Shown: positions 10,011 to 57,121, numbered from the stretch's first letter. The stretch: 64,000 nt of DNA from Lachnospiraceae bacterium (GCA_017552985.1 JAFZNO010000060.1:6980-70979), one strand, 5' to 3'. Made by a program: numbers and translations. Notes: generated by a model not told the origin, from the letters alone.

Positions 10011-10079
10011 CAACCTCGTGCTAAATGATAAAGAGGAGAAGGAATACCGTTTCGGAATGGCATAACAGGGAGGAAGAAA

Positions 10080-11264: not shown

Positions 11265-11300
11265 CGGATTTTCTGTTAGGAAAATGCGAAAGGGATAAGA

Positions 11301-12221
11301 ATGAAACTGTATCATTATTACGAGAAAAGCATAGGTCCTTTTCATAGCATTTCAGAGCTTTCGGATGAGGAAGCGAAGGCATTACTGCAGCGCATTCGAA
11401 AGGAAAAGCCGAATGCTTTTATCGCGCTTAGACCCGAAGATTACGTGGAAAAGAGAAGGCGTTTCGAGGGTATTTTGCGGGAGGAATTCTTAAAAAAGGG
11501 AGGACTGATCGAGCGTGAAACGCCGCATTACTTTGTGGTGGAGGCAGTTCCTTTTTTTGAAAAATGGTACGAGCAGACGGCATTTGTCGAGATGGATGCG
11601 GAGCAGTTGGATCTGCGGACGGTGTCATTTACTTACGGGGATTCTCATCCGACTTTCAGCGGTAACGTGAAGGATGGAAAAGAATACCGGAATCGCTTGT
11701 ATACCTATGAAGAGATCCTTGGGATAATTGAAAAATATGGGCTTCCACAGATTTGGAATCCAGATTTCAAGCACGGACCGGAGTGTTACGTAGAGGTACA
11801 GGTTTGGAGTGACAGAGGATTGGAACCGTGGGTGAATCAGCCGTTATGGCACGGAAGCCCATATTTACTCGACAAACTTGTGCCGCAGCAGGCATACGAT
11901 TTCGGCTTTGAGCAGGGATGCCAACTGGCCGTCTATGCCACAAACAATAAGGAGATGGCGATCTGTTTTGCGTTGGGCTGTGAGGATGATCGGCCAGGAA
12001 TCGAAGGCAGACGGATGATGATGCCGGAATATGGCAACCGTATGGTTTTTGAGGGCTGCCATCCGAAGTACGGCGCGAAGGGATACCTCTATCAGCTTGA
12101 TCCGAAAGGCTTTGTTCACGCCATGGGATCCCAGTGGGTTTGCCATCACGAAGTGATGCCCGTGAAAACCATCGAGATCAACGTAGATGACTACTTGGAT
12201 CTATGCATCGTTAGGAGATGA
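11301..12221 (+). CDS. two-domain hypothetical protein whose C-terminal module is paralogous to 20926-21363
   Basis: C-terminal LWHGSPYLLDKLVPQQAY...AVYATNNKEMAICFAL...KGYLYQLD aligns with VYHGSQYLFDVVKPMQAH...GIYAAATKEEVIPFAM...KGYIYVLP. Confidence 0.6.
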   Translation: MKLYHYYEKSIGPFHSISELSDEEAKALLQRIRKEKPNAFIALRPEDYVEKRRRFEGILREEFLKKGGLIERETPHYFVVEAVPFFEKWYEQTAFVEMDAEQLDLRTVSFTYGDSHPTFSGNVKDGKEYRNRLYTYEEILGIIEKYGLPQIWNPDFKHGPECYVEVQVWSDRGLEPWVNQPLWHGSPYLLDKLVPQQAYDFGFEQGCQLAVYATNNKEMAICFALGCEDDRPGIEGRRMMMPEYGNRMVFEGCHPKYGAKGYLYQLDPKGFVHAMGSQWVCHHEVMPVKTIEINVDDYLDLCIVRR

Positions 12222-12291
12222 ATTACGGGCAATTCCATGAACGGCCGCGTGCTTGTGAAAAGAAGATACGAAGCGGAAATTTAAGCGATAA

Positions 12292-13119
12292 ATGAAGGGT
12301 AGTGATAGTTTGAAAGAATACGTAAAGGCAAGCATAAAAGACGTTGACGTTGTATTTAATATTGTTCAGGAGTCAATTAAAAGCACGTATCCCAAGTATT
12401 ATCCGAAAGAAGTGGTAGATTTTTTCTGCGAGCTGCATTGTAAGGATAACATTACAAAGGATATTCATGATGGGTTGGTTGGCATGTTGCTGGTAGATGG
12501 CGTTTGCGTTGGTACGGGTTGTTTTAGAGAAAACCATATCACCAGAGTGTACGTATCGCCTGCGCAGCAGGGCAAGGGGTATGGCTCGTACGTAATGAAT
12601 TGTTTGGAGTCAATCATTTCAGCAAACTATTCGAAAGCGGTATTGGATGCTTCTTTGCCGGCAAGTCATTTATATGAGAAGCGGGGTTATTCAACCATAG
12701 AACATTGTAAACGTCCCGTAAAAAATGACGTTATTCTTGTGTATGAAGTAATGGAGAAAGAATTAAAAACCAATCAAACAAGAATCGACTATGACGGCAG
12801 AAAATTTATCCCGATGGAAAACACGGAGAATGGGGAAGTAGATGGTAATACGATATTCCATTATCATCAGAATGGTAATGATTTTAGTGCCGATTATTCC
12901 GGGGGCGAAATCAAGAAGGGATATATGATCGGAAAGGTAAGCGATAACGGCGAACTGGATTTTTATTATGAGCACGTAAACGTGGATGACGTAATAAGAG
13001 CCGGCAAGTGTCACAGCGTACCAAGACTTAACAATGACGGAAAATTGGAATTGCATGAGGAATGGCAGTGGCTTAACGGAGATTGTACCTCGGGAAAATC
13101 AGTTGTGGTTGAGCCGTAA
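12292..13119 (+). CDS. GNAT N-acetyltransferase with a C-terminal beta-rich extension
   Basis: RVYVSPAQQGKGYGSYVM Q/RxxGxG/A motif. About 120-aa extra C-terminal domain. AT-rich relative to neighbours. Confidence 0.7.
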   Translation: MKGSDSLKEYVKASIKDVDVVFNIVQESIKSTYPKYYPKEVVDFFCELHCKDNITKDIHDGLVGMLLVDGVCVGTGCFRENHITRVYVSPAQQGKGYGSYVMNCLESIISANYSKAVLDASLPASHLYEKRGYSTIEHCKRPVKNDVILVYEVMEKELKTNQTRIDYDGRKFIPMENTENGEVDGNTIFHYHQNGNDFSADYSGGEIKKGYMIGKVSDNGELDFYYEHVNVDDVIRAGKCHSVPRLNNDGKLELHEEWQWLNGDCTSGKSVVVEP

Positions 13120-13174
13120 AATGGTTATTAGAATAATTCGTTAATTTCATGAAAGATTTGGGAGGTGTTGACAA

Positions 13175-13705
13175 ATGAATGATCAAGAAATTGTTGAATC
13201 TGAAAGACTCATCATGAGGCGCTTGATGCCTGAGGATTATAAAGTTATGACCGCCTGGGACATGGATGAGAGAGTCTATAAATATCTATTAGGCTCTGCA
13301 TGTAAAACGCCGGAAGAGCCACTTGCGTGGTTACCTAAGAAGGATCCCACTTCAAAAGTTAACATACTGATGCTGGTGTCTGAAAAAGAAGACGGACATG
13401 CGGTGGGAATTTATGCGCTTAACCATGACGTTGAACGAGACGTCTGGTCATTGTCCTATGTCAACAGGTACGATGACTGGGGCAAAGGTTATACGGTAGA
13501 AGGCATGAAGGCTCTAATGGAACATGCCGTAAAAGCTTATGGAGCGCGCATGTTTGAAGGCGAGTGTGCGAAAGAAAACATAGGCAGCAGAAGAGTTATG
13601 GAGAAGTTGGGGATGGTGTACGATCACAGTTCGTCATATACAAAGAGTGATGGCAGTGCTACCTTCGAATCAGACGTATTTACTCTAACGGTTTCAGATA
13701 ATTAG
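13175..13705 (+). CDS. GNAT family N-acetyltransferase (RimJ/RimL-like)
   Basis: SERLIMRRLMPEDYKVM opening and WGKGYTVEGM. RBS GGGAGG. Confidence 0.8.
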   Translation: MNDQEIVESERLIMRRLMPEDYKVMTAWDMDERVYKYLLGSACKTPEEPLAWLPKKDPTSKVNILMLVSEKEDGHAVGIYALNHDVERDVWSLSYVNRYDDWGKGYTVEGMKALMEHAVKAYGARMFEGECAKENIGSRRVMEKLGMVYDHSSSYTKSDGSATFESDVFTLTVSDN

Positions 13706-13825: not shown

Positions 13826-14290
13826 ATGATAAGATTTGCAAGAGAAGAGGAATTGGAGAAAATAAATGAGCTCCGAAAAGAAGTGAATGACGTGCACGTG
13901 GAAGGGCGGCCAGATATCTTTAAACCTGGGTTTGACGAGGTGTTGCGGGATTATATCTATGAGATCTGGAAGGATCCCAATAAGGACATTGTGGTTGCGG
14001 AACGGAACGGAGAGATCTGCGGGGTTGCGGTGCTGAATTGCATTTACAAACCGGGAAGTCCCTTTATGTTTCCCAGGGATTTTATGGACGTGGATGAGTT
14101 TTGCGTGGCGAAAAAGTACAGACGGCAGGGCGTTGCGACGGAACTGATCGAGTTCATCAAGAAATATGCGAAGGACAAAGGGTTTCAGAGGTTAGAGCTA
14201 AACATGTGGGAGTTTAATGAGGGGGCGTTAAAGTTCTACGAGTCCGTGGGTTTTGAAACCTATCGGAGGTACATGGAGGTCAAACTATAA
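13826..14290 (+). CDS. GNAT family N-acetyltransferase
   Basis: FCVAKKYRRQGVATELIEF motif. Confidence 0.85.
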   Translation: MIRFAREEELEKINELRKEVNDVHVEGRPDIFKPGFDEVLRDYIYEIWKDPNKDIVVAERNGEICGVAVLNCIYKPGSPFMFPRDFMDVDEFCVAKKYRRQGVATELIEFIKKYAKDKGFQRLELNMWEFNEGALKFYESVGFETYRRYMEVKL

Positions 14291-14393
14291 ACTTAGGAAT
14301 TTAGTCTGACGGTCTATGCCTGAGCATGCTTAGAGAAGGATGGAAGGTTTAGTAAATTGACTTTGTGATTTAAAAACGCAAGGAGGGTTACGC

Positions 14394-14738
14394 ATGAAGT
14401 ATCAGAGGAAGGAAAACAGAACCTGGCTGGAAGATGAGGATGGGACGAGGATCGGATATATTGATCATCCCGAGGTGCGGCCAGGTGTAGTGAATTTTGA
14501 GCATACCATCGTGGAGGATGCGTACTCGGGACGTGGGATCGCGGGGGAATTGACAAAGACCGTGGCGGAGCAGCTTCGGAAGGACGGTATCAAGGCAGAG
14601 CTTTCCTGTTCCTATTCCATCCAGTGGTTTGCAAAGCATCCGGAATATGCGGACGTGCTGGCGGATCCTGAGGCGGAAGCGCAAAAGGCACAGATGCTGG
14701 CAGGCCCGGCCTGTGGGATCCGAAGAAAAACAAAATGA
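14394..14738 (+). CDS. small GNAT-like acetyltransferase (YjdJ type)
   Basis: [19 protein letters not shown]...[15 protein letters not shown]. Confidence 0.65.
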
Positions 14739-14778
14739 AGATATTCTCTTAGCAAAAGAAACGTGCGAGGAGGCCTAT

Positions 14779-15285
14779 ATGAACGGGATTTCTTACGTTA
14801 GATGCGATGGAACGAACGAGGATTTCATTGAGAACTGCAGATTGCTTGACGAGGATTTGGACAGGCGGGTCGGCAAGGTCATTCAACGCGATAAATACAA
14901 GCAATATAACCTGCTGGATAAGATTCATGAAGCAATCGTTGTCTATCAGGACGGAAAGCCCATTGGAGGAGGCGCCGTCAGACCTTATGATGAAACGGCG
15001 ATCGAGTTAAAGAGAGTATTTGTGAGACCAAGTGCCCAAGGGAATGGCGTAGGAACGGAACTGGTATCCAAGCTGATCGAATGGGCGACGGAACTGGGGT
15101 ATCAAAGAATGATCCTGGAGACGGGTGATCTGCTTGCGGAATCCGTTCACGTTTATTCGAAGCTGGGATTCCGTAAGATCCCCAATTACGGCGCTTACGT
15201 AAATATGCCGGAGTCTTTGTGCATGGGGCTGGAGTTGCAGGGCCAGAAGCCGGAACCTGCGGAAGATGGATGGGCGAATGATTAG
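14779..15285 (+). CDS. GNAT family N-acetyltransferase
   Basis: [18 protein letters not shown] motif. ATG at 14779 preceded by GAGGAGG. The ORF-track start 14629 overlaps the previous gene. Confidence 0.8.
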
Positions 15286-15306
15286 AGAATAACAGGAGAG
15301 TTAGGC

Positions 15307-16002
15307 ATGAAAAAGATTGGCTTAGTGGGCGGGACGGGCCCGGAATCAACGTTGTCATATTACAAAAAGCTGAATGAGGAGATCGACAGGCTGACAAATG
15401 AAAAGAACATGCCTGACGTTGCCATAGAGAGCGTCAATTTCCGCAGGGCGTGGGAGTATGTCGTGAACGGGGACCGAGAGGCTCTGACGGAGTATCTGGC
15501 GGAGAAGATCCGGATCCTTAAGGCAGGCGGCGCAGAGGTGATCTCGCTTACGGCCGTCACCATGCACATGGTTTTTGAAGAGTTGGAAAAAAGGACTGGT
15601 GTCACTCTTGTCAGCATTCCGAGGGCCGTATGCGAAGAGATTGTGAAGGCCGGCATCAAGAAGGTTGGGCTTCTCGGGACCATGACGACAATGGAGCAGG
15701 ACTACGTGAAAAAAGACCTGATCGCGGCCGGAGTTGAGGTTTTCGTGCCGGATGAGCAAGAGAGAGCCTTGGTGGCAAAGAGGATTTACGAGGAGCTTGA
15801 GAAGGGGATCGTAAAAGAAAGTACTTTGCAGGAATTTCAGCAGTTGATCGGGAAGATGAAGGCTGAGGACGGAATTGAGGGCGTGATCCTTGGATGCACG
15901 GAATTGCCGCTTCTTTTGAATTCCGGGAATTGTCCGGTTCCATGCTTTGACAGCGTGGAGATCCACGTGCGAAAGCTGGAGAAACTTGTTTTGGAAGACT
16001 AG
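15307..16002 (+). CDS. aspartate/glutamate racemase family protein
   Basis: GLVGGTGPEST and ILGCTELPLL motifs. Confidence 0.8.
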   Translation: MKKIGLVGGTGPESTLSYYKKLNEEIDRLTNEKNMPDVAIESVNFRRAWEYVVNGDREALTEYLAEKIRILKAGGAEVISLTAVTMHMVFEELEKRTGVTLVSIPRAVCEEIVKAGIKKVGLLGTMTTMEQDYVKKDLIAAGVEVFVPDEQERALVAKRIYEELEKGIVKESTLQEFQQLIGKMKAEDGIEGVILGCTELPLLLNSGNCPVPCFDSVEIHVRKLEKLVLED

Positions 16003-16018
16003 GTTGAGGAGAAAAAGC

Positions 16019-16765
16019 ATGAAATTATATTTGACAAGCGCTATTGGCGGTGACGTCAAGGAAGACGGCATACGGAAGCCGGCGCCGCTGCTTCCGTTTA
16101 ACGGATTTACACATTTTTTGAAGCAGGATTGGGTGGAGAATGCAAAGGTTTTGATCATTTCAGCTTCGCCGGCAGAGTATGAAAGAAATGATTCCATCCT
16201 TCGGTGCCTGCGGGAAGCCTTTCCCATGAGCGGACTGAGCATCTCCCGCATGGAGATTTGCGATGACAGAAATCTTGCCGGCGCGGACCGCATTGGAGAA
16301 ATGGACGTAGTGTTACTCTCTGGCGGGCACGTGCCGACGCAAAATGCCTTTTTTCAAAAGATTGGATTAAAAGAGAAATTGAAGGACTTTCAAGGCATTG
16401 TGATCGCGTACAGCGCAGGCTCCATGAACTGTGCGGAGCTCGTCTATGCCAGTCCGGAAGCAGACGGGGAGGCGCTGGATCCGGATTACAAGCGTTGGAT
16501 CCCCGGACTGGGTTTGACAAACGTCAATATTTTTCCGCATTTTGAGGTTCTCAGGGAGGATTGGCTGGACGGTATGCGCGTGGTGGAGGACATTGTCTTT
16601 CAGGACAGTTACGTGCATGAGATCATTGCCATGAATAACGGAACCTTTATTATGGTTGATGAAAATGGCAAGCATACGTTGTTTGGCGAGGCTTATCGCA
16701 TCAAGGACGGTAAGATGGAGCAGATCTGTCAACATGGAGCGTCAGTGGAGTTTAATTGTCAGTGA
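16019..16765 (+). CDS. peptidase S51 / type-1 glutamine-amidotransferase-like protein
   Basis: LLSGGHVPTQ and IAYSAGSMN motifs. Start taken at MKLYLTS. Confidence 0.6.
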   Translation: MKLYLTSAIGGDVKEDGIRKPAPLLPFNGFTHFLKQDWVENAKVLIISASPAEYERNDSILRCLREAFPMSGLSISRMEICDDRNLAGADRIGEMDVVLLSGGHVPTQNAFFQKIGLKEKLKDFQGIVIAYSAGSMNCAELVYASPEADGEALDPDYKRWIPGLGLTNVNIFPHFEVLREDWLDGMRVVEDIVFQDSYVHEIIAMNNGTFIMVDENGKHTLFGEAYRIKDGKMEQICQHGASVEFNCQ

Positions 16766-16770
16766 TAAGT

Positions 16771-16799
16771 GGGTCAATCAGAACCGTCCCCGTTGACCC
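16771..16799 (+). repeat. junction hairpin element
   Basis: GGGTCAA-TCAGAACCGTCCCCG-TTGACCC: 7-bp stem and conserved loop, immediately 5' of the RBS of the next gene. Confidence 0.55.
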
Positions 16800-16814
16800 A
16801 TAAGGAGGCAAAAA

Positions 16815-17255
16815 ATGGAAGATTTGGAAGTGATGCGCGCGCAGGAGGAATGGCAGCGCGCGGGAGCATACAGCGTAAGGATTCAGGGCATGAACCGCCA
16901 GCACCACATTTCCCTGCGGGATGAATTTGATGAGCATGACGGGGAAGGAACAAAGTATATTATTCTTCTCGATCAGGGCTATCCGGTTGCGACGTGCAGG
17001 TTTTATGAGATTGGGGGAAACGCGGTGACGATCGGAAGGGTCGTGGTTCTTCCGGAATATCGCGAGCATCATTTGGGAGAACGGGTGATCAGGGAAGCGG
17101 AAGGCTGGATCAAAGAGCTTGGATACAAAGAGATCCTCGTGGACAGCCGCACGGTAGCCGTTGGGTTTTATGAAAAACTCGGCTATGAAAAAAACAGTGA
17201 TGAGGTCTATATGAGCGGCGTTTTTGAGTGCGTGAAGATGCAGAAGGCGTTATAG
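16815..17255 (+). CDS. GNAT family N-acetyltransferase
   Basis: RVVVLPEYREHHLGERVI motif. RBS AAGGAGG. Confidence 0.8.
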   Translation: MEDLEVMRAQEEWQRAGAYSVRIQGMNRQHHISLRDEFDEHDGEGTKYIILLDQGYPVATCRFYEIGGNAVTIGRVVVLPEYREHHLGERVIREAEGWIKELGYKEILVDSRTVAVGFYEKLGYEKNSDEVYMSGVFECVKMQKAL

Positions 17256-47622: not shown

Positions 47623-49572
47623 ATGACGGATTTTATTGCAAGAATTGCGTTGACGCAGCAGTTTTCGAAGGATCATGAGGGAGACCTGGGAGGCTTCGCG
47701 GCGAAAGTGATGGAGTATTTTCCGGAAGAGGCGGAGGCCGTTTTGGAGATCGGCCGGTTTACCTATGCCTGTTACTTGTTGAAGGCAGAGACGAAATCAG
47801 AGTGCCGGTGGTTTTTGGAACAGGCGTGGGAGAAGGCCTTTCCTGGAGAGCCCTTTGCGGAAATCCAGATTTCTGAGATCGGTGACGTCGAGACGGATGG
47901 CAAGTCGAAGTATACAAAGGGCATTTATACGAATTTTTACGGAATGGACGACTTCGTACGGCGCATTACGGAGCTGTTGGAGAGGCTGCCGTATATAAGA
48001 GAGCTGGGAGCAGAGGACGTCATAAAGAAGCAAAATTATCTTTGTGCCATTGATTCCGGCTGCGGTTTCTCGACGCTGATCTCGGGGCTTTCGACGGTTC
48101 TGATCGCGCACGAAGTATTTCCGAAGCCTGAGGATGGCACGGATTACGCGTATGCAGAGTTTGTGATGGGGGCGGAGGAGAAGAACGGACATTTTGACGA
48201 GGACTCAGCGATCGACCTTTTGAGGGATGAAGATAATAAGAAGAACCTGCACGTGATCGGCATTGATATCTCTTATTTCCTGGAGGGGAATAAGACGGAT
48301 GAACTCCGGAGATTTGTGAGACGCCTTGAGGACTTGCAGAGGGATTACGTTTTTGTCTTCCGCATTCCGTTTTTGGAGAAGAAGGCCTTTGACGAGATCA
48401 GGACCGTGCTTTCTGACATGATGCTCCTTGAGACGATCCAGATCCCGCCCTATTCCGATCTGTGCCTGATGGAATTTTTGTGGGAGAATCTGAATAAGGC
48501 AAAGCTTATGCCTGACGTTGCCATCAATGAAATGGCGATCGAAAAGATCCATCAGGAAAAGATGGACGGACGGTTTTACGGTTATAAGAGCGTGGAGAAG
48601 ATCGCCAATGAGATCATCCTGCGGAAGATTGCTGACAATGCAAGGAAAAAGGCGGAAGGCGCGGAGGTGGATCCCTTCACCTTGAATCCAGAAGACATAG
48701 CCGGTCTTGTCCATGAGGAAAGAGGAAAAGCAACGGGTTACGCGGCTCTTGCGGAACTGATCGGCATGGAAGACATCACCGTCCGCATCAGGGAGATCAT
48801 TGCGCAGATCAAGGTTGCCATGGCAAACGAAAAGCTGGATCGCCCCAGCATTCACATGCGTTTTACGGGAGCTCCCGGAACGGGAAAAACCACCGTGGCA
48901 AGGATCATTGGACAGATCATGAGAGAAGAGGGAATTCTCCGGAAGGGCGCGTTCTTTGAGTACAGCGGAAGAGACTTGGTGGCGGAATACGTGGGACAGA
49001 CGGCGGTAAAGACGTCGACGATCTGCCGGGACTCTTACGGTTCCGTACTTTTCATCGACGAAGCATACTCTCTTTATACGGAGGATCATTCCAACAATGA
49101 TTTCGGAAAGGAAGCGATCACGACGCTGATCTCCGAGATGGAGAATCACAGGGATGACATGTTAGTAGTCATGGCAGGTTACACGGATGAGATGGAGACG
49201 CTGATGAAGGCGAACCCCGGCATCCGAAGCAGAATGCCCGTGATCCTGCATTTCCCGAATTACAGCAAAAAGCAACTGTTTGACATCTTTATGCTAATGG
49301 TGAGAAAGCATTTCGCCTTTGATCCCGGGCTTGAGGAAGAGTCGCACAAGTACTTTATGGCGCTCTCGGATAAGTATCTGGAGTCCAAGGAATTTGCGAA
49401 TGCAAGATTCGTGAGAAATCTGTATGAGAGAACTTGGTCGAAGGCAGCACTTAGATGTAGTCTTGCAGGCGTAAGCAACATTGTACTGACGAGGGAAGAT
49501 TTCATTGCCGCCAGCGGCGAAAAGGAATTTAACGAGAAAATAGAAGTGCAGAAGGTTGTGGGATTTAAGTAA
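47623..49572 (+). CDS. AAA+ ATPase of the CbxX/SpoVK type with a ~400-aa unknown N-terminal region
   Basis: Walker A GAPGTGKTT, Walker B VLFIDEAYSL, MAGYTDEM. Confidence 0.8.
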   Translation: MTDFIARIALTQQFSKDHEGDLGGFAAKVMEYFPEEAEAVLEIGRFTYACYLLKAETKSECRWFLEQAWEKAFPGEPFAEIQISEIGDVETDGKSKYTKGIYTNFYGMDDFVRRITELLERLPYIRELGAEDVIKKQNYLCAIDSGCGFSTLISGLSTVLIAHEVFPKPEDGTDYAYAEFVMGAEEKNGHFDEDSAIDLLRDEDNKKNLHVIGIDISYFLEGNKTDELRRFVRRLEDLQRDYVFVFRIPFLEKKAFDEIRTVLSDMMLLETIQIPPYSDLCLMEFLWENLNKAKLMPDVAINEMAIEKIHQEKMDGRFYGYKSVEKIANEIILRKIADNARKKAEGAEVDPFTLNPEDIAGLVHEERGKATGYAALAELIGMEDITVRIREIIAQIKVAMANEKLDRPSIHMRFTGAPGTGKTTVARIIGQIMREEGILRKGAFFEYSGRDLVAEYVGQTAVKTSTICRDSYGSVLFIDEAYSLYTEDHSNNDFGKEAITTLISEMENHRDDMLVVMAGYTDEMETLMKANPGIRSRMPVILHFPNYSKKQLFDIFMLMVRKHFAFDPGLEEESHKYFMALSDKYLESKEFANARFVRNLYERTWSKAALRCSLAGVSNIVLTREDFIAASGEKEFNEKIEVQKVVGFK

Positions 49573-49582
49573 AGAATAAGAT

Positions 49583-49627
49583 GGGGCAGAGCCGGATCAG
49601 GGGATCCAACTCTGCCCTCTTTTTTTA
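49583..49627 (+). terminator. rho-independent terminator
   Basis: GGGCAGAG...CTCTGCCC stem followed by TCTTTTTTT. Overlaps the stop of the convergent CPBP gene. Confidence 0.75.
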
Positions 49628-50482
49628 CATTACTATGGTCGATACTTCAATCTTTGCAGGATTCTCTTTTTCTGCCTTACATGCCTTGGTCATAAAGAAG
49701 ATGCAGCCTGCGAGGCCAAGAACGCCAACGATCATCAGGGTGATTGCAACGGCGTTGGACTCGATGGTGAAGAGCTTATAATTTACGATAACGGCATAGC
49801 TGTTGATCAATACGTGCATCATGATGGTGGGCAGGATGGATCCGGTTTTGATCCGGACGTAGCTAAGAAGCAGGCCTACGGTGAAGGCGAAGAGGATCCA
49901 AATGATCTGTCCGTGCATGAGACCAAAGAGTACGGAGGTGATCAAGGCTACGACAACGTTAGGCATAACTTTCTGGAGCCTGGAAAAGAGCACGCCGCGG
50001 AAGATCACTTCCTCCAAAACGGGAACCAAGAAGGCATTGGTCAGGAATGCCTGCCACAAGGAGTATGCATAAAGATTCTGGGATGCTTCCGTGAATTCCT
50101 CCACGCTCTCGCTGGGAAGGAAACCCATGCTCATGTTTACGGTGAAGATCACGAAGAGTGCACCGAGTGCGGCGGCAAGGGATTTTGCGGCGGGTATCTT
50201 CTTGAGATCCAATTCTTTGGCAACGTTCTTCCTGCGGATCGCAAAGAAAGCGATCAGGAAGACCAAGGTAAAGATGGCGCGTACCGCAAGGTCGATCCAC
50301 ATGCGGCTTGCGTAAAAGTTATTGGCGTATGCAATGGTTTCTTCCTGCGTTAACTGTAGACCTGCGGCCTTGATCTCAGCGCCCGCCTGCATGCCGATCA
50401 AGAATTGAACCAGGAAGCCAACGACTAACTGGCCAAAGAGATAGAGAATAAAATAACAGATAGCTTTTCCAATTTGTTTCAT
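49625..50482 (-). CDS. CPBP-family intramembrane glutamic endopeptidase
   Basis: EEVIFRGVLF and FGLMHG motifs in a multi-TM protein. Confidence 0.85.
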   Translation of the reverse strand: MKQIGKAICYFILYLFGQLVVGFLVQFLIGMQAGAEIKAAGLQLTQEETIAYANNFYASRMWIDLAVRAIFTLVFLIAFFAIRRKNVAKELDLKKIPAAKSLAAALGALFVIFTVNMSMGFLPSESVEEFTEASQNLYAYSLWQAFLTNAFLVPVLEEVIFRGVLFSRLQKVMPNVVVALITSVLFGLMHGQIIWILFAFTVGLLLSYVRIKTGSILPTIMMHVLINSYAVIVNYKLFTIESNAVAITLMIVGVLGLAGCIFFMTKACKAEKENPAKIEVSTIVM

Positions 50483-50645: not shown

Positions 50646-51347
50646 TTAGAATGCCTCGCCCTCCACAAAGGAATACAAGGATTCCTTCAGCGATTTCAGA
50701 TTGCTTCTGCTGACGGGCAGGCTCGCGCCGTTTTCCATAATGACTTCAGACTTTACGATCTTTTTAACTTTGGCTAGGGAGATCAGGTAACCCCTGTGAA
50801 TGCGGAAGAACCCGTCATCCCGAAGTTGTTCTTCAAAATCACCCATGTTGGCGCGGACCAGGTGTTCCTCGCCGCGCAAATAGATCATGACGTACTGGTT
50901 CTGCGCCTCAAAGTATAATACGTCAGCGACGTTCAAACGAAGCTCCTCGCCCTCTGACTTGATCATGAGCTGACGTTTTGCCGTATTCTTGTCCATCACG
51001 TATTTTAATACCTCGCGAAGCTTGTCTTCACGGATTGGCTTCGTCAGATAGCGCAAGGCATTCACTTCATAACCTTCCAGCGCGTATTCCACGTGTGACG
51101 TCAGGAATACGATAAAAACGTTCTCGCTTCGCTGGCGAAGCTTCTTGGCCAGGGTGATCCCGTCCATGGAAGGCATTTCGATGTCCAAAAAGATGACGCC
51201 ATAGGGATTGGCGTCGAATCTCTCCAAAAGCTTCTTTCCTTCTGAAAACACGTCCACGATCACGTCCATGCTGTTATAAATCTTATCGATCAGGTTCCGG
51301 ATTTGTTCCTGAAAGATTTCTTCGTCATCACAAACTGCGACTCTCAT
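50646..51347 (-). CDS. LytTR-family response regulator (no adjacent kinase)
   Basis: Receiver MRVAVCDDEE...FLDIEMP and a LytTR C-terminus (FFRIHRGYLISL). RBS AAAGGAG. Confidence 0.85.
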   Translation of the reverse strand: MRVAVCDDEEIFQEQIRNLIDKIYNSMDVIVDVFSEGKKLLERFDANPYGVIFLDIEMPSMDGITLAKKLRQRSENVFIVFLTSHVEYALEGYEVNALRYLTKPIREDKLREVLKYVMDKNTAKRQLMIKSEGEELRLNVADVLYFEAQNQYVMIYLRGEEHLVRANMGDFEEQLRDDGFFRIHRGYLISLAKVKKIVKSEVIMENGASLPVSRSNLKSLKESLYSFVEGEAF

Positions 51348-51431
51348 AAAATGAACTCCTTTGTAAAACAACGTTTTGAGGCAGTACGGTCTATTTGCCC
51401 AATTATACCAAAAAACGGGGAAAAAAGAAAG

Positions 51432-51472
51432 TCACCGGTGATTTTGACGTTGGAAAGAATTTTAGGTATAAT
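51432..51472 (+). promoter_or_regulatory. near-consensus promoter with an upstream 10-bp palindrome
   Basis: TCACCGGTGA (51432-51441). TTGACG (51444-51449), 17 nt, TATAAT (51467-51472). Confidence 0.65.
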
Positions 51473-51502
51473 AAGAAAAGATTTTACGTGAGAGGCGACG
51501 CT

Positions 51503-53077
51503 ATGAAAAAGAACCGGATCATACAGATCATTTTTTCCATTATCTTTTTTTACTTTATTTTGACAGTTTTGCTTTTTGTTGCCGAGACGGTGTCGAAGGG
51601 GACGGAAAGCAGCATCACGAATCTTGGCGACGCCGCATGGTATTTGCTGGCGACGCTGACGACCGTTGGATACGGCGACGTGACGCCGGTCACCATGGCG
51701 GGAAAGACCATCGGGGCAATCATGATGGTTTCCAGTGCAGGCGTTCTGACGTTCCTGCTGGGCCTGACGTTTACGGTGCTCTTTGGGCGCCTTTTGCCCT
51801 GCTTTTTGCTCTGGTGCGTGCGTCACAGAAACTGGTACGTGTTCTCGACGCTGGATGAGAGCACGCAGATCCTGGCCAGCAGACTGGCAAAGGAAGATCC
51901 CAGGGCAGCATACGTCTTTTGCGGCAGGGAGGAGACGATCTCCCAGGAGTATTTTCCGACCATGAAGCATCACGTGATCATCGATGAGCCGACGGAGGTC
52001 GTGATCAAAAGGCAGGATCCGTCGAAACGATGCAACGTATTCTTTATGACAAAGAACGGCTGGGAGAATGACGCCCTCGGGCGTGGCCTGTTAAAGAGGG
52101 GAAAGCGCCCTGGACTTAAGGTATTCTGCGATGCGGATCACGCGCCGGATCACGTGCCTGACGGAATGGTTTTATTCCATCGCCCGGACTCCATTGCGCG
52201 AAGCTATTGGACGAGCTTTCCAGTGGAGACGAATGAGAAAGTGATCCTGCTTGTCGGTGACGGGAAGGTTGCCCGCCAGATCCTGGAGAGGGGCATTCTC
52301 ATCAACGTGCTTCCCTGGGAACAATCCCTGGAGTACCACGTGTTTGGGGATTGGACGGAATTCCAGAGGGATCATTATGAGCTTGGTAAGATTGTCGGGA
52401 TCGGCGTTAAGCCAGTGGACGAAGACGGTTTATTCTTTGAAGGGCAGGCGTGGAATGCGTCCCCTGCGCTCCTGGCAAGTGCAAGCCGCATCATTTTCTG
52501 CGCTGACGAAGAGGAGGTCAACCTCTCCCGCATGACGGAGCTACGGCGGCATTTCCCGACGAGGGCGCAGGTGGATGCATACACTTCCAAGGCGGATGAC
52601 CGCTGCAGAAACTTTGGCGGGGACGATCAGTTGCTGACGGGCGAGATCGTCATGCAGGAAAAACTGAACCGCATGGCGGTCAAGCTGAATGAGTTTTATT
52701 GTAATAAGACGGGCAGTGGTACGGGCTGGATGGAGCTTTCTGAGTTCCACAGGCAGTCGAACATCGCCGCGGCCGATCATTTGCTTACGAAGATCCGGTT
52801 GCTCCTGCCTCAGGAGAACGTTACGCAGGTGACGCCGGAGGTTTGCGCTACGGCATTCGCGAGATATTGCGAGCTTTCCGCCGAGCGGAAGGAAGCCTGC
52901 AGGTGGCTGGAGCATAAGCGCTGGATGCGATTCCACGTGATGAACAATTGGAGTTACGCGCCCGTAAGGGATAATCAGCTTCGTCATCACCCCATGCTGG
53001 TATCGTATGAGGAACTGACGGAGCAGGAACAGGCATTGGATGATTCAGCTTGGGAGATACTAGGGGAGATCAAGTAA
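51503..53077 (+). CDS. 2-TM K+ channel with Rossmann/RCK-like segments and a C-terminal RyR domain
   Basis: Selectivity filter TLTTVGYGDV. VILLVGDGKVARQILE. RyR-like WLEHKRWMRFHVMNNWSYAPVRDNQLRHHPMLVSYEELTEQEQ. Confidence 0.8.
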   Translation: MKKNRIIQIIFSIIFFYFILTVLLFVAETVSKGTESSITNLGDAAWYLLATLTTVGYGDVTPVTMAGKTIGAIMMVSSAGVLTFLLGLTFTVLFGRLLPCFLLWCVRHRNWYVFSTLDESTQILASRLAKEDPRAAYVFCGREETISQEYFPTMKHHVIIDEPTEVVIKRQDPSKRCNVFFMTKNGWENDALGRGLLKRGKRPGLKVFCDADHAPDHVPDGMVLFHRPDSIARSYWTSFPVETNEKVILLVGDGKVARQILERGILINVLPWEQSLEYHVFGDWTEFQRDHYELGKIVGIGVKPVDEDGLFFEGQAWNASPALLASASRIIFCADEEEVNLSRMTELRRHFPTRAQVDAYTSKADDRCRNFGGDDQLLTGEIVMQEKLNRMAVKLNEFYCNKTGSGTGWMELSEFHRQSNIAAADHLLTKIRLLLPQENVTQVTPEVCATAFARYCELSAERKEACRWLEHKRWMRFHVMNNWSYAPVRDNQLRHHPMLVSYEELTEQEQALDDSAWEILGEIK

Positions 53078-53078
53078 A

Positions 53079-54938
53079 ATGGCAGTAGACATGACGGTAA
53101 TTCTTATATCAGCTGCATTCTTTCTGGCGTTGGTGCTCTACGTGGCACTGGAACAGGAGCAGCGGGAACGGATCACGAGCATTGCATTCTTTATCGCTGC
53201 GGCAGGCGGAATCGTGATCTATGGCTTTAGTTATTCACACGGACATAACGGCATGTTTGACCGATTCACGGCCGTGCTCCGGACCATGATCGACGTGGGA
53301 CGCATGTTTGTGGGCATGAATAACGAGGCTGCCTTCCGGGAGGCCCTTGCGAAGATGGGATTCTCTGATTCCGCATGGCTTTTCCTGTTTTGGGGCGTAC
53401 ACTTTTTTGCATATTATTCCATGGCCAGCGCAGCCGTGCTTGCCTTGGGAAAGGGCGCGATCAGAAAGCTCCAGCAGCTTCTTTTGAATGTGCGTGATTT
53501 GGAGATCATCTATGGCATCACGGACAGTTCCCTGACCCTTGGAAGACACGTGGCGTCGGACAAGCATAAATCCGTGATATTTATCGGGCGTGCGGATGCT
53601 TCGCAGGAACTGGCCATCCGCCAGATGGGAGCGCTTCTGTATTCGGATGACGTGGCACTGGAGCCCCAGGAAGCTTTCTTAAAAAGGCTCTCTTTAAGGC
53701 GTCACGACCGTAAGCTGCACGTATACGCGCTTTCTGAAAATGAGGATGCAAACATCAAGTACGCGGTTCATTTACTTGCATTGTTGAAAAAGGCTGAAAT
53801 GGAGCCGCAGAGGACTTCCCTGGTGCTTCTTGGCCAGGAGGAGCGTCACGGCGGCGACCTACAGGCGACGAGAGATCACTATGGATATGGTGAGGTAAAG
53901 GCGTTTGACCACTCGGAGCTGACAGCGCGTCTTCTCGTTCAAAAATATCCGATCAGCAAGGCCGTGGAGTTTGATGACGACGGACTTGCAAAGCAGGACG
54001 TGGAGGTCTTGCTGGTGGGCTTTGGCCCCATGGGACAGGAGGTTCTGAAGAAGCTGATCGCAAACGGACAGTTTGAGGGCAGCACCTTTCATGCCCACGT
54101 GTTTGATCCCAATTGCGGGATCGTAGACGGATTTTATCGCAGAAGATATGCGGCAATGCTGAAAGCTTATGACGTGACGTTCCATTCCGGCAGCGGCAGA
54201 AGCATGCAGTTCTGTGATTTTCTGGAGGAACATGCCCAGAGCCTTACGTATATCGTGGTGGCAATCGGAAACCTGAAAAAGGGCGGCGAGATCGCGTATG
54301 CCATCTTGGATTTCCTCGCAAAATCAAAGAGAAAACTGCCGGTATATCAATGCTGTAATGACACGGTGGTCTGCTATCAGGATCATTTGGAGAGTGAGTA
54401 CGCCAGCCTGCATGACGCAGACATTTTGTTTGGCGGCACCATGGACGATCTCGCCATGAAGATCAACCATTATTATAACGATCCGGAAGGGTCACCCAAG
54501 GAACAGTGGATGGCATGTGATTACTTTAGCCGCATGAGCTGCCGCGCCAGCGCGGATTTCCTGTCTGCTTACTTAAACAGACTGTGCGAGGATCATTCCA
54601 AGGATTTGACGGACGAGAAAGTGGAGAATATGGCAAAGACGGAGCATCTGCGCTGGAATGCGTTCCACTACAGCATGGGCTACGTCAGAATGAGCGACGA
54701 GACTTGGGCGGCAAGGGCGGAACAGTTCCGCAAGGAAGTGGCGGTCGGAGGCGTGGGACACGTCAGGATTTCCAAGGATGCCGCAGAAAAGCAGCACGCC
54801 TGTCTGGTAAGCTGGGACGAGCTGGATGAACTGTCTGCAAAGGAGAATGAAGTTACGGGAAAATCCGTGGATTACAAGCAGATGGACCGCGATAACGTGA
54901 AAGTTGTTTTGAAGCTACTTAAGGAAGACGAGAAATAG
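53079..54938 (+). CDS. membrane protein with a TrkA-N-like NAD-binding fold and a C-terminal RyR-like domain
   Basis: 4 N-terminal TM helices without a filter. LLVGFGPMGQEVLKKL. EHLRWNAFHYSMGY...KQHACLVSWDELDEL. ATG 1 nt after the upstream stop. Confidence 0.7.
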   Translation: MAVDMTVILISAAFFLALVLYVALEQEQRERITSIAFFIAAAGGIVIYGFSYSHGHNGMFDRFTAVLRTMIDVGRMFVGMNNEAAFREALAKMGFSDSAWLFLFWGVHFFAYYSMASAAVLALGKGAIRKLQQLLLNVRDLEIIYGITDSSLTLGRHVASDKHKSVIFIGRADASQELAIRQMGALLYSDDVALEPQEAFLKRLSLRRHDRKLHVYALSENEDANIKYAVHLLALLKKAEMEPQRTSLVLLGQEERHGGDLQATRDHYGYGEVKAFDHSELTARLLVQKYPISKAVEFDDDGLAKQDVEVLLVGFGPMGQEVLKKLIANGQFEGSTFHAHVFDPNCGIVDGFYRRRYAAMLKAYDVTFHSGSGRSMQFCDFLEEHAQSLTYIVVAIGNLKKGGEIAYAILDFLAKSKRKLPVYQCCNDTVVCYQDHLESEYASLHDADILFGGTMDDLAMKINHYYNDPEGSPKEQWMACDYFSRMSCRASADFLSAYLNRLCEDHSKDLTDEKVENMAKTEHLRWNAFHYSMGYVRMSDETWAARAEQFRKEVAVGGVGHVRISKDAAEKQHACLVSWDELDELSAKENEVTGKSVDYKQMDRDNVKVVLKLLKEDEK

Positions 54939-54959
54939 TTATATTTTAGGAGTTGGAAG

Positions 54960-55955
54960 ATGGCATTTCTGTTTGACGTACCGGAATACAAAAAAATCAG
55001 AGTGATCATTGACACGGATGCCGCCTGTGAAGCGGACGATCCCTTTGCGATCGTGCAGGCGCTTCTTAGTCCAAAGCTGATCGTGAAGGGCATTTTGGCA
55101 GAGCATTTTCGGGAAGAGGGCTCCATGGAGAGAAGTTATCAGGAGATCCAGACGATCCTGGATTGCATGGACGTGAAGAACGTGCCGGCATTTCACGGGC
55201 AGACGGGACCTGCTCCCGAGGGCTTTTTCGACAAGCAAGAGGCTTGCAGTGCGAAGAGTTCTGGGGCCGAAACTGCGCTGAAGGATGCGGAGCTCTCTGA
55301 GGGCGTGCGTTTTCTGATCGAAGAGGCCCTGCGCGAGGATGAAAAACCATTGTTCGTATTGTGTCAGGGAGCGATCACGAACGTGGCGGTTGCCATAAAA
55401 ACCTGCCCTGAGATCATAAAGCGAATGACGGTCATTTGGATCGGAACCCACGGCGAGGCTCCTCACGCAGCTCCCTTCCGTGAATTTAACGCGGGGAATG
55501 ACGTGAATGCGGCAAACTTTTTACTATCCTGCGGCGGTGACGTCTGGGTGGTTCCCTCCACGGTTTACGGGACGATCACCATTGGCATTGCGGAGATCCA
55601 AAGAAGAATTTTGCCCTGCGGAAAGATCGGAGAGCATCTCTTCTGGAACCTTGTGAATTATAACAATTCCGAATTTTCGGGATGGACAAAGGGAGAAAGT
55701 TGGTCTCTTGGGGATTCTCCCGCGATCGCGCTGGCCCTCAATCCGGATTGCGGCCACTTTAAGTACGTGCCGGCGCCCGTGGTGGCGGAGGATACGTCTT
55801 CCGTCGCCTGGGATGAACCCTTGGCGGGGAAGCAAAGTGAGGTAACCCAGCCGGGAGAAACCTGTAAGCGCCCTATGGTAAAAATGTATTATGACGTGGA
55901 CTCCAGATACATTCTGGAGGACTTAATCGCAAAGCTGGAATTATTTTGTAAATAA
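54960..55955 (+). CDS. nucleoside hydrolase (IUNH-family-like)
   Basis: N-terminal IIDTDAACEADDPFAI (DxDxxxDD). Confidence 0.7.
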   Translation: MAFLFDVPEYKKIRVIIDTDAACEADDPFAIVQALLSPKLIVKGILAEHFREEGSMERSYQEIQTILDCMDVKNVPAFHGQTGPAPEGFFDKQEACSAKSSGAETALKDAELSEGVRFLIEEALREDEKPLFVLCQGAITNVAVAIKTCPEIIKRMTVIWIGTHGEAPHAAPFREFNAGNDVNAANFLLSCGGDVWVVPSTVYGTITIGIAEIQRRILPCGKIGEHLFWNLVNYNNSEFSGWTKGESWSLGDSPAIALALNPDCGHFKYVPAPVVAEDTSSVAWDEPLAGKQSEVTQPGETCKRPMVKMYYDVDSRYILEDLIAKLELFCK

Positions 55956-56089
55956 ATAGTTCGCTTTATCTTTCCATATTAGACCAAACAAGTCAATCCG
56001 TAAGATAAGGTTTGTCGTTGTGTGGTAAACGTGGTATGCTTAACGTGATGAGCGTAAATATGTAAAAAGATACCTAGGGTTTAGGAAAT

Positions 56090-57121
56090 ATGAAAAGAGA
56101 AAACGTAAATAAAAAGAGACGATTTGTTTGTTTTGCGGCGGGGCTGTTGTGCCTTTCGCTGACGGCCTGCGGCGAGAAGGAGCCGCAGGGCATTTTACAG
56201 GGCGTGCCCATTTCTGCAGAGGAAGACAGCGGTGAAGTGGTAAGGAAATCCGTGGAAGATTCCTTGGCCGAAAAGACGATGGAAGCAAATGACCTGACTT
56301 TGGAACTTGCGGATTCCGCAGAGGAGCTGATCACGGAGAGCGTGGTGGCGACGGGAAGTGCAGTGAGCCTTCTTCAGGCAGATGGAAATACGCTGGAAAC
56401 AAGAGTGATGACGCCTGCGGGATATGAGCGGGTGCCAGTGGAGGAAGGAAGCTTTGAAGAGTATTTGCGCCAGTATCCCATGAAACCGGCGGGATCGAAG
56501 GTGCATCTCTATGACGGAACGGAGAAGGGGAATCAATCAGCTCACGCTGCCGTGTTTGACCTTCCCATCGAAGATTATGACCTGCAGCAGTGCGCGGATT
56601 CCGTGATGAGAATGTATGCCGAGTATTTTTGGGCGACGGAGCAGTATGACAGGATCAAATTCCATTTTACGAATGGATTTTTGGTGGAATATTCCAAGTG
56701 GCGTGACGGAAACCGCATAACCGTCAATGGAAATAACGTATCGTGGATCAAGTCGAAATCCAAGGATACCTCCTATGAGTGCTTTGTCAGGTACCTAAAG
56801 ACGATCTTTTGTTATGCGGGAACGCTTTCCATGGAAAAGGAATCTGAACCGACAGTCACCACGCTGTTAAAGGCGGGGGACGTGTTCCTGAATGGGGGAA
56901 GTCCCGGGCACGTGGTGATGGTGGTGGACGTCTGCGAGAACGAAGACGGCAAGAAGGCATTCTTGCTGGCGCAGGGCTACATGCCCGCACAGGAATTTCA
57001 CCTCTTGAAAAATGACCGTCATCCGGAGGATCCCTGGTATTATCAGGAAGAGATCAAGTATCCTTTCAGCACGCCGGAATACACTTTCCAAGAGGGTAGC
57101 ATGCGGAGCTTGAATTATTGA
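56090..57121 (+). CDS. lipoprotein, DUF4846-like
   Basis: Lipobox LSLTAC. Family assignment is from memory of the DLQQCADSVMR-type motif. Confidence 0.55.
   Translation: MKRENVNKKRRFVCFAAGLLCLSLTACGEKEPQGILQGVPISAEEDSGEVVRKSVEDSLAEKTMEANDLTLELADSAEELITESVVATGSAVSLLQADGNTLETRVMTPAGYERVPVEEGSFEEYLRQYPMKPAGSKVHLYDGTEKGNQSAHAAVFDLPIEDYDLQQCADSVMRMYAEYFWATEQYDRIKFHFTNGFLVEYSKWRDGNRITVNGNNVSWIKSKSKDTSYECFVRYLKTIFCYAGTLSMEKESEPTVTTLLKAGDVFLNGGSPGHVVMVVDVCENEDGKKAFLLAQGYMPAQEFHLLKNDRHPEDPWYYQEEIKYPFSTPEYTFQEGSMRSLNY

Follow-up and report, generated by a model that had tools for sequence, protein, structure and literature searches.

A recent survey of TIR systems (Yirmiya et al., bioRxiv 2025, doi 10.64898/2025.12.03.692087) distinguishes 29 putative Thoeris types, of which Type X has been validated. 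Type X consists of a small ThsB TIR protein and an 'ion channel' effector, ThsK, and provides an experimental precedent for Thoeris systems that join a TIR to an ion channel. According to the survey, two-gene TIR systems with a separate membrane effector use a diffusible signal, large stand-alone TIR sensors that deplete NAD+ were excluded as non-signalling, and SARM1, an animal TIR enzyme, makes cyclic ADP-ribose (cADPR). On the phage side, two preprints of 2026 (PMC13232231; doi 10.64898/2026.06.04.730250) describe small proteins of the ryanodine receptor (RyR) domain family PF02026 that bind the TIR products 2'cADPR, 3'cADPR and cADPR, one of these proteins acting as a hydrolase. Here we analyze a stretch of 64,000 nt (the window) from Lachnospiraceae bacterium (GCA_017552985.1 JAFZNO010000060.1:6980-70979; coordinates count from its first letter), in which two adjacent genes, A and B, encode membrane proteins with RyR or RyR-like tails and are followed by a nucleoside hydrolase gene, C (Table 1). 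Because the RyR pocket residues are conserved and relatives of the pair are linked to TIR genes, we suggest, at a rough probability of 0.55, that A and B form the membrane-effector half of a Thoeris-like module for nucleotide signalling that is linked to TIR.

Table 1. Positions of the features discussed, with strand and the basis of each assignment (ORF, open reading frame; TM, transmembrane).
Feature	Position in window	Strand	Basis or remark
Gene A	51503-53077	+	524 aa from ATG; longer TTG-initiated ORF from 51395
Putative sigma-70-type promoter, TTGACG-17-TATAAT	51444-51472	+	Ahead of gene A; 11 of 12 consensus positions
A residues 1-105, K+ pore with two TM helices (pore helix and TTVGYGD filter between outer and inner helix)	51503-51817	+	Pfam Ion_trans_2
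A residues 106-385, tandem RCK-like Rossmann domains of gating-ring type	51818-52657	+	Foldseek
A residues 386-524 and stop, RyR Repeat12-like helical tail	52658-53077	+	PF02026, Foldseek, BLASTP
Gene B	53079-54938	+	619 aa
B residues 1-135, membrane domain, four long helices and a short one, no K+ filter	53079-53483	+	AlphaFold2 model
B residues 136-445, tandem RCK-like Rossmann domains with GFGxxGQ motif	53484-54413	+	Foldseek, homology to A
B residues 446-619 and stop, divergent RyR-like tail with insertion	54414-54938	+	hhalign to A, alignment to phage RyR protein
Gene C, IUNH-type nucleoside hydrolase	54960-55955	+	331 aa; IU_nuc_hydro E 7.7e-24, 85.3 bits against a cutoff of 34.2
DUF4846 gene	56090-57121	+	Pfam DUF4846 E 2.6e-107
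Receiver and LytTR response regulator, divergent	50646-51371	-	Pfam Response_reg, LytTR; link to A-B not apparent

Protein A joins a K+ pore to a gating region and a RyR tail. Its residues 14-93 match the Pfam family Ion_trans_2 (E 2e-9, 37.6 bits against a cutoff of 22.5), its pore resembles those of Kv and KvAP in a PDB sequence search, and filter residues T51, T54, G56, Y57, G58 and D59 of TTVGYGD are invariant among 65 homologues. The AlphaFold2 (AF2) model, with a predicted local distance difference test score (pLDDT) of 91.3, places the helices of the pore region at residues 3-30, 41-53 and 65-105. By its hidden Markov model (HMM) match and the TVGYG filter lying between two TM helices, A is assigned to the K+ channel pore family, and K+ conductance is predicted. 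The best Foldseek match of the model is the GsuK channel (4gx0, 4gx2 with NAD and 4gx1 with ADP; E about 2e-6), over an alignment of ~510 columns with a low sequence identity of about 11-15%; next come the TrkA ring and Slo1/Slo2.2. The layout of A, in which each subunit carries two RCK-like domains behind a two-TM K+ pore, recalls GsuK, MthK and Slo, and GsuK, its closest structural match, was solved bound to NAD and to ADP according to the PDB titles. A differs from these channels in its extra C-terminal RyR Repeat12-like domain, in being paired with a paralogue that lacks the filter, and in the genomic link of both A and B to TIR.

Gene B begins directly behind A, the TAA stop of A being followed by 1 nt and then the ATG of B. 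Searches of Pfam, NCBIfam and PDB sequences with B gave nothing usable, and with neither an Ion_trans_2 match nor a filter it falls outside the K+ pore family. Its AF2 model (pLDDT 88.9) has helices at residues 2-22, 26-53, 59-76, 83-93 and 97-135. By Foldseek, the Rossmann domains of B resemble those of hSlo1 and of the TrkA gating ring (4j9v and 4g65; E 1e-5, probability 1.0), and within the GFGxxGQ motif of B G314 and F315 are invariant, while G316, G319 and Q320 are at least 90% conserved. For both proteins the RCK assignment comes from structure, with GsuK, the TrkA ring and Slo as top Foldseek matches at probability 1.0, and not from sequence, since Pfam sequence searches detected TrkA_N in neither.

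Between the third long helix and the short helix of B (window 53295-53325, residues 73-83) lies a loop with the motif GRMFxGxN, which occupies the place of the pore helix and filter in A. In an alignment of 11 sequences F77 is invariant, and in a second alignment M76 and G79 are at least 90% conserved. The loop could be a degenerate pore loop; no homology of it to K+ pores is detectable.

A and B are related over much more than their tails. When their profiles are compared (65 A and 66 B homologues, hhalign), 392 columns align with a probability of 99.7% and E 3.5e-25, and the match pairs B 115-583 with A 85-506, from the last membrane helix through the RyR tail; of the membrane domain of B, only this last helix aligns with A. 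BLASTP finds the similarity in the tails only (E 1e-5). Because the hhalign span runs back into the last membrane helix, we consider A and B, on these alignments, to be paralogues over their whole cytoplasmic part and not over the tail alone. A preliminary description of this DNA, made before these searches, had called the two proteins paralogues from a shared motif, and the relationship proves stronger than it proposed. Its ORF coordinates for A, B and C agree with our ORF calls, as do the 1-nt gap between A and B and the 21-nt gap between B and C; its canonical K+ filter in A, its four TM helices without a filter in B and its Rossmann-like segments are all borne out by the HMM match and the models. 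It had further expected Pfam matches to Ion_trans_2, a TrkA_N-like domain and RyR, and the first and last of these appeared in A, whereas TrkA_N gave no match and B none at all.

The tails suggest a link of the pair to nucleotide signalling. In A, residues 471-514 reach 31.9 bits against the PF02026 cutoff of 27.4, and Foldseek matches the final ~170 residues to the two-repeat RyR Repeat12, both in the Bt-hRyR_12 chimera 6uhi (171 columns) and in RyR3 Repeat12 9ls7, along with many phage RyR-domain proteins. The RyR tails of the preliminary description are thereby recovered by HMM for A; the tail of B stays below the Pfam RyR gathering score (E 0.5), its profile reaches among PDB entries the RyR repeat only, at E 0.12, and its identity follows through homology to A.

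As described in PMC13232231 and doi 10.64898/2026.06.04.730250, the phage RyR pocket takes a His and a Trp from an E-H-x-x-W helix and is completed by another His and an Asp, and the phage domains function as dimers. These preprints also report that the catalytic dyad of the phage protein RyDEP is H75 and D117 and that most tested phage homologues with the same residues bind without cleaving (PMC13232231), and that the animal RyR Repeat12 pocket binds ATP and drugs (doi 10.64898/2026.06.04.730250). A tblastn search with the A tail retrieves phage RyR proteins, among them gp78 of phage DyoEdafos (E 4e-11 against the A tail by BLASTP), which we take to be RyDEP because of its 'ryR domain protein' annotation, its source phage and the agreement of H75, W78, H100 and D117 with the published numbering. 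A three-way alignment equates these four residues with H471, W474, H496 and D513 of A and with H523, W526, H573 and D603 of B, and the columns are invariant. With the preceding Glu included, the pocket of the A tail, in its second repeat, comprises E470, H471, W474, H496 and D513, conserved in 63-65 of 65 A homologues, and that of B comprises E522, H523, W526, H573 and D603, present in 66 of 66 B homologues. By alignment, both tails keep the residues with which phage RyR proteins bind or cleave 2'/3'cADPR, and they would be expected to bind such a ligand. The view in the preliminary description that no function is assigned to bacterial RyR domains no longer holds, given that phage RyR proteins bind or cleave cADPR isomers (PMC13232231; doi 10.64898/2026.06.04.730250).

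The likeness to RyDEP and RyR Tad proteins thus lies in the PF02026 fold, the four pocket residues and direct BLASTP similarity to the A tail. These phage proteins are small, soluble, dimeric anti-defence sponges or glycosidases, whereas in A and B the domain is the tail of a host membrane protein, where it would receive a signal. The animal ryanodine receptor is likewise an ion channel bearing an R12-type nucleotide pocket, as the 6uhi and 9ls7 matches indicate, and the enzyme class upstream in the cADPR-RyR axis is again a TIR that makes cADPR, SARM1 in animals. The pores differ completely, that receptor being a giant Ca2+ release channel and A having a K+-type two-TM pore with RCK domains, and any evolutionary continuity between them is speculative.

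The second line of evidence comes from the genomic surroundings of relatives. A and B each have ~300 relatives in databases, chiefly from Lachnospiraceae and Butyrivibrio of rumen and gut samples. In a scan of one genome per species, B relatives occurred in 258 species; 80 of these loci, each of ~16 kb and all from rumen and gut Clostridia, were fetched, and the counts given here are species-level loci from that set; L numbers denote retrieved loci, of this set or of other searches. Six-frame ORFs of the 80 loci were searched with A, B and C and with a TIR HMM built from neighbour proteins, and a TIR gene was counted as adjacent when it lay on the same strand at most 3.5 kb from B or the A/B core. 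Eleven loci were excluded from this count, their contig ends being too near to judge TIR presence, which leaves 69 informative loci. A adjoins B in 46 of the 80 loci, and a same-strand TIR gene accompanies B or the A/B pair in 37 of the 69; in 30 of the 37 it lies within 100 nt. The orders TIR-B, B-TIR, A-B-TIR, B-A-TIR, TIR-A-B and TIR-B-A all occur, and the taxa include Lachnospiraceae, Butyrivibrio, Oscillospiraceae/Faecousia, Mogibacterium, Anaerovoracaceae and other Clostridia. Beyond 3.5 kb, same-strand TIR genes were found only in L071 and L072, as parts of the same gene clusters, an internal control by which TIR genes are otherwise rare in these loci.

The partner TIRs, mostly of 600-1100 aa, carry TIR_2/ThsB_TIR domains fused to TPR, MORN, Sel1, WD40/beta-propeller, LRR or RHS repeats (Pfam), and PADLOC gives them generic TIR/ThsB similarity only. 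Most retain the motif S-x-W-(C/V)-x-x-E or a variant with the catalytic Glu, which makes them catalytically plausible. Other neighbours were rejected as partners: GH31, GH10, UvrA, RecD2, IPMS, PPIase, histidine kinases and GGDEF proteins reflect lineage-specific synteny, and a PNP_UDP_1 gene beside B in Butyrivibrio, a candidate for a TIR-like partner, was judged coincidental as it sits among origin-proximal housekeeping genes.

In the window itself, neither tblastn with 47 TIR seeds nor the custom HMM applied to six-frame ORFs (E up to 10) found a TIR across the 64 kb. Thoeris is recognized by a TIR gene in the effector operon, as in the TIR-linked relatives, and because no TIR is present the window locus is itself not Thoeris by definition. 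The A-B pair is an accessory element, present or absent among equally related genomes (L102 compared with L013-L015); its GC content is slightly above that of its flanks, and a clear island signal is absent.

Several relatives have arrangements of their own. In three loci (L041:7992-11414, L046:6164-9730 and L071:7992-11411) the B proteins are ~1140-1190 aa long, with an extra C-terminal half of ~535 aa, which in L041 consists of a papain-family C1 protease (Peptidase_C1) and a Lectin_like domain. In L041 and L071 the fused gene is preceded by a TIR gene, which in L041 encodes a TIR-Sel1 protein, and is followed by a gene for a clostripain-type Peptidase_C11; L046 also has a TIR. These B-protease fusions suggest that the RCK and RyR module can drive a protease output besides a membrane one. 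L105 has an HTH-TIR-B-A operon and, on the opposite strand (-, 7633-13551), a second TIR and LRR pair (386 aa and 1015 aa) with a ParE toxin gene, a setting that is defence-island-like. The protease fusions, together with this second TIR-LRR pair and ParE and with the WYL regulators described below, point to a conflict system.

In Mogibacterium and Anaerovoracaceae (L070-L083) there is a fixed order of five genes, encoding B, A, a ~880-aa protein, a 281-aa TIR-like protein and a ~685-aa TIR-TPR protein (the last three at L076:11432-14077, 14077-14922 and 14925-16988, for example). The ~880-aa protein has neither a Pfam nor a PADLOC match, and the 281-aa protein has no Pfam match and lacks the usual catalytic-Glu motif. 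In one locus only (L003:11052-12392), an isochorismatase-family gene, possibly for a nicotinamidase, and an NAD synthase gene directly follow A-B-TIR(Sel1), so that NAD-salvage-type genes stand beside an NAD-consuming TIR. WYL regulators often control defence systems, and three Butyrivibrio loci without a TIR (L039:938-1924, L042:6938-7927 and L047) have a WYL and WCX regulator gene immediately ahead of B.

We propose the following mechanism. Each protein combines a membrane domain and a tandem RCK-type gating region with a C-terminal RyR Repeat12-like nucleotide pocket. In the full systems of relatives, a TIR protein with a repeat sensor (WD40, LRR, Sel1, TPR or MORN) would detect infection and turn NAD+ into an ADP-ribose-derived signal, which would bind the RyR pockets of B and A and possibly also RCK Rossmann sites, such as the GFGxxGQ site in B. 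The cytoplasmic RCK ring would then open the membrane domain, K+ and membrane potential would be lost through A, and growth or infection would be aborted; B would contribute a membrane activity of its own. As ring and tail are common to both proteins and phage RyR domains are dimeric, it is plausible that A and B co-assemble through their homologous rings and RyR tails when both are present. The window pair, which appears translationally coupled and has its own putative promoter, may either be served by a TIR encoded elsewhere or form a stand-alone ligand-gated channel pair. More tentatively, Clostridia may encode an undescribed Thoeris type in which a repeat-sensor TIR makes an ADP-ribose-derived nucleotide for a homo- or hetero-oligomeric channel of A and B with RCK and RyR domains, the window pair being then an orphan or served in trans.

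Such a system would resemble Type X in having a TIR gene beside a membrane or ion-channel protein as its presumed effector, here the relatives of A and B, and in its expected logic, where a TIR-made, NAD-derived signal opens the membrane effector. To compare the two, the published TIR sequence was used to obtain a Type X locus (L095), which it matches at 100%; other attempts to reach ThsK, through plasmids with the Type X TIR, gave only Type II (Macro) loci and a degraded copy from Bacillus mycoides. ThsK (L095:3358-3984) is a membrane protein of 208 aa with the motif TLTYGGF and no RCK or RyR region. Neither A (BLASTP E 0.28) nor the B profile (hhalign probability 0.1%) shows detectable similarity to this short protein, and we rejected the idea that A or B is ThsK. 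The TIRs differ as well, those of Type X being ThsB-type proteins of about 140-170 aa and those linked to A and B being mostly far longer, with sensor repeats. The A/B effector, moreover, is often a paralogue pair, and in the window it stands without a TIR.

The text and visible table parts of the survey (doi 10.64898/2025.12.03.692087) have no entries for RyR, RCK, TrkA, Butyrivibrio or Lachnospiraceae, and overlap with its 29 classes is possible; the accessible parts of PMC13232231 and doi 10.64898/2026.06.04.730250 describe no cellular RyR-domain effector. Since ThsK is unrelated, PADLOC gives no match and no cellular RyR effector appears in those parts, we class A and B with their TIRs as distinct from the published Type X effector, and as Thoeris-like with a new effector class.

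A number of observations weigh against a TIR-dependent signalling role. The RyR assignment of B is indirect, resting on homology to A and on the alignment with the phage RyR protein, and the window has no TIR. Same-strand TIR genes within 3.5 kb are missing from 32 of the 80 loci, a group that includes L072, with a TIR at 5.2 kb, and L085, where a TIR abuts on the opposite strand, and most of the TIR-less loci lie in housekeeping surroundings (ribosomal L17, LarC or EamA genes, for example). PADLOC-DB v2 models gave nothing for A, B or C at E up to 0.01, and viral contigs searched for B relatives as a sign of phage or prophage carriage yielded none. Gene calling in the census was crude, although six-frame ORFs served for the TIR, A and B calls. 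It could also be that the large TIR-repeat proteins are self-contained effectors that deplete NAD+ and make no signal. An A-like channel can occur with neither B nor TIR: a distant relative (L107:1073-3685, 34% identity) with Ion_trans_2 and RyR stands without them, followed by a second K+ channel (Ion_trans_2 and TrkA_C), so that RyR-tailed K+ channels are not always tied to B.

Some of these points would be expected if A and B formed a housekeeping K+ channel complex of the GsuK/MthK kind, in which RCK and RyR domains sense NAD(H), ADP or ATP and the adjacency of TIR is secondary or regulatory and unrelated to phage defence. GsuK, which A resembles most in structure, binds NAD+ and ADP according to the PDB titles; ATP and drugs bind to the Repeat12 pocket of animal RyR (doi 10.64898/2026.06.04.730250); the 32 loci without a same-strand TIR within 3.5 kb, mostly set among housekeeping genes, include the window; A and B have no PADLOC matches; and the A-like channel of L107 sits beside another K+ channel. 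We nonetheless regard such a complex as unlikely. That a TIR directly adjoins B in 30 loci, across numerous gene orders and taxa, is hard to explain on these terms, and the presence or absence of A-B among equally related genomes is the behaviour of an accessory gene. Some B proteins are fused to proteases and flanked by TIR and C11 peptidase genes, and B, the most TIR-linked member, is the one that lacks the K+ filter.

It is also conceivable, though rather improbable, that A and B sense the NAD+ depletion brought about by TIR-repeat effectors with NADase activity, the channel being closed while NAD+ occupies the RCK GxGxxG site or the RyR pocket and opening when NAD+ drops, which would add membrane collapse to metabolic arrest. 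Such sensing would suit the conserved GFGxxGQ motif of B, the structure of GsuK with NAD, the resemblance of the TIR-repeat proteins to the stand-alone NAD+-depleting sensors mentioned in the survey, and the isochorismatase and NAD synthase genes that follow the TIR in L003. Two points speak for a dedicated signal instead: the RyR pocket keeps exactly the residues that recognize cADPR isomers, catalytic dyad included, and the known two-gene systems of TIR and membrane effector signal by a diffusible molecule, according to the same survey. By sequence, the depletion and signalling models cannot be separated.

The preliminary description had read A, B and C as one operon and had proposed a nucleotide-gated ion-flux module, perhaps acting in abortive infection. 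That proposal fits the TIR linkage and the pocket residues, and its weak part is the hydrolase as a clue; of the synteny it expected in relatives, the A-B pair is widely kept and the hydrolase is found in the window's own clade only. The assignment of C to the IUNH family was sound: its IU_nuc_hydro match and N-terminal Asp cluster place it there, with its substrate activity predicted, although the cluster (DTDAACEADD) is spaced DxD-5-DD against the canonical DxDxxxDD, and C also matches Sde182_NH-like.

C could in principle be a working third component in the window clade that replaces the TIR as the enzyme making or removing a ribosyl or nucleoside ligand for the RyR or RCK sites. Enzymes of the TIR and IUNH types both cleave N-glycosidic bonds. 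On the strand they share, C is separated from B by a gap of 21 nt, which holds a ribosome-binding site for C (AGGAG) and no predicted terminator; A-B-C is kept in L011-L015, even in L013-L015, where DUF4846 is no longer directly next; and the next clades (L016, L018 and L020, with B 70-74% identical) carry a TIR where the window clade has C. We give this little credence. The family of C is very large, with 1999 hits of which the best 120 each reach 61% identity or more, and identity is about 65% throughout many Lachnospiraceae. Only the window and L011-L015, whose B proteins share 83-97% identity with window B, have C next to A-B, and in none of the other 75 census loci was C found beside A or B; common descent by itself would keep genes syntenic within a single clade. 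C also occurs without A or B: in L102, where it is 75.5% identical to window C, the same as in L013-L015, and in L103 (70.7%), DUF4846 comes directly after C and neither A nor B is nearby. The PNP_UDP_1 gene beside B in Butyrivibrio, among origin-proximal housekeeping genes, likewise tells against C. On the size of its family, the C-DUF4846 pairs without A/B and a link to A-B in its own clade only, we rejected C as a conserved third component; it is probably a bystander, a housekeeping gene outside the module. The hydrolase is a poor guide for experiments; the informative partner is the TIR of relatives.

Finally, the notion that the RyR tails are enzymes, hydrolyzing 2'/3'cADPR as RyDEP does so that A and B end or buffer TIR signals at the membrane and do not bring about cell death, draws on the conservation of the RyDEP dyad (H75 and D117) in A and B and is highly improbable, since most tested phage homologues with these residues bind only (PMC13232231) and a signal-degrading domain on a K+ pore with an RCK ring has no obvious logic, sensing being in any case compatible with slow, self-limiting hydrolysis.

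The remaining features of the window lie outside the proposed module. C and DUF4846 are a conserved pair, beside which A-B is the accessory element; the pair is taken as real because L102 and L103 keep it without A/B. DUF4846 directly follows C in L011, L012, L102 and L103, and adjacent IUNH-DUF4846 pairs are found in several Lachnospiraceae (window 54960-57121; L102:6001-8041; L103:6001-7991). In L103 the pair is followed by a PfkB-family sugar or nucleoside kinase, and from this neighbour and the pairing with IUNH, DUF4846 may act in nucleoside metabolism.

Upstream of A-B, in the window clade, is a 649-aa AAA+ ATPase (47623-49572, +; AAA and AAA_lid_6) with weak IetA-like PADLOC matches (E 2e-6). 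It was rejected as part of the module, being kept in the window clade only; L016-L020 have no match at E 1e-20 or better. Between the AAA gene and A lie a CAAX/Rce1-like membrane protease (49625-50482, -) and the LytTR regulator, which has no histidine kinase beside it. In L011, L012 and L015 an opposite-strand ORF of the same size occupies the position of the regulator, whereas L013 and L014 have no such ORF there; as the AAA gene directly abuts A in these last two, protease and regulator seem to be an insertion of two genes. In L040 and L045, too, B is followed by a CAAX-type protease. The divergent LytTR regulator had been recognized in the preliminary description and is upheld by Pfam, and the putative promoter it named is kept in relatives, the 29-mer being identical in the two closest, L011 and L012. 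The palindrome TCACCGGTGA, said there to flank the promoter, did not hold up as an operator: perfect 10-mer palindromes number 84 in the window, and this one is absent from all six close relatives searched (L011-L016) and is put down to chance.

Rumen and gut Clostridia are poorly sampled by current defence catalogues. If the signalling role proposed for A and B is correct, these bacteria would hold a new effector class for TIR/Thoeris immunity, in which RCK and RyR domains gate a K+ channel and a paralogue of it that lacks the filter. A bacterial axis would then run from TIR through a cADPR-type signal to a RyR-domain ion channel, with the first cellular receptor function of the RyR Repeat12 pocket. 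In the accessible parts of the reports cited here, RyR-type nucleotide pockets have so far been characterized only in phage counter-defence proteins; A and B would put the pocket on the receiving side of the host, which would explain why phages use the same fold as a decoy or degrader. The pair would also offer a tractable bacterial model for the debated question of whether cADPR acts directly on the R12 domain of the ryanodine receptor.

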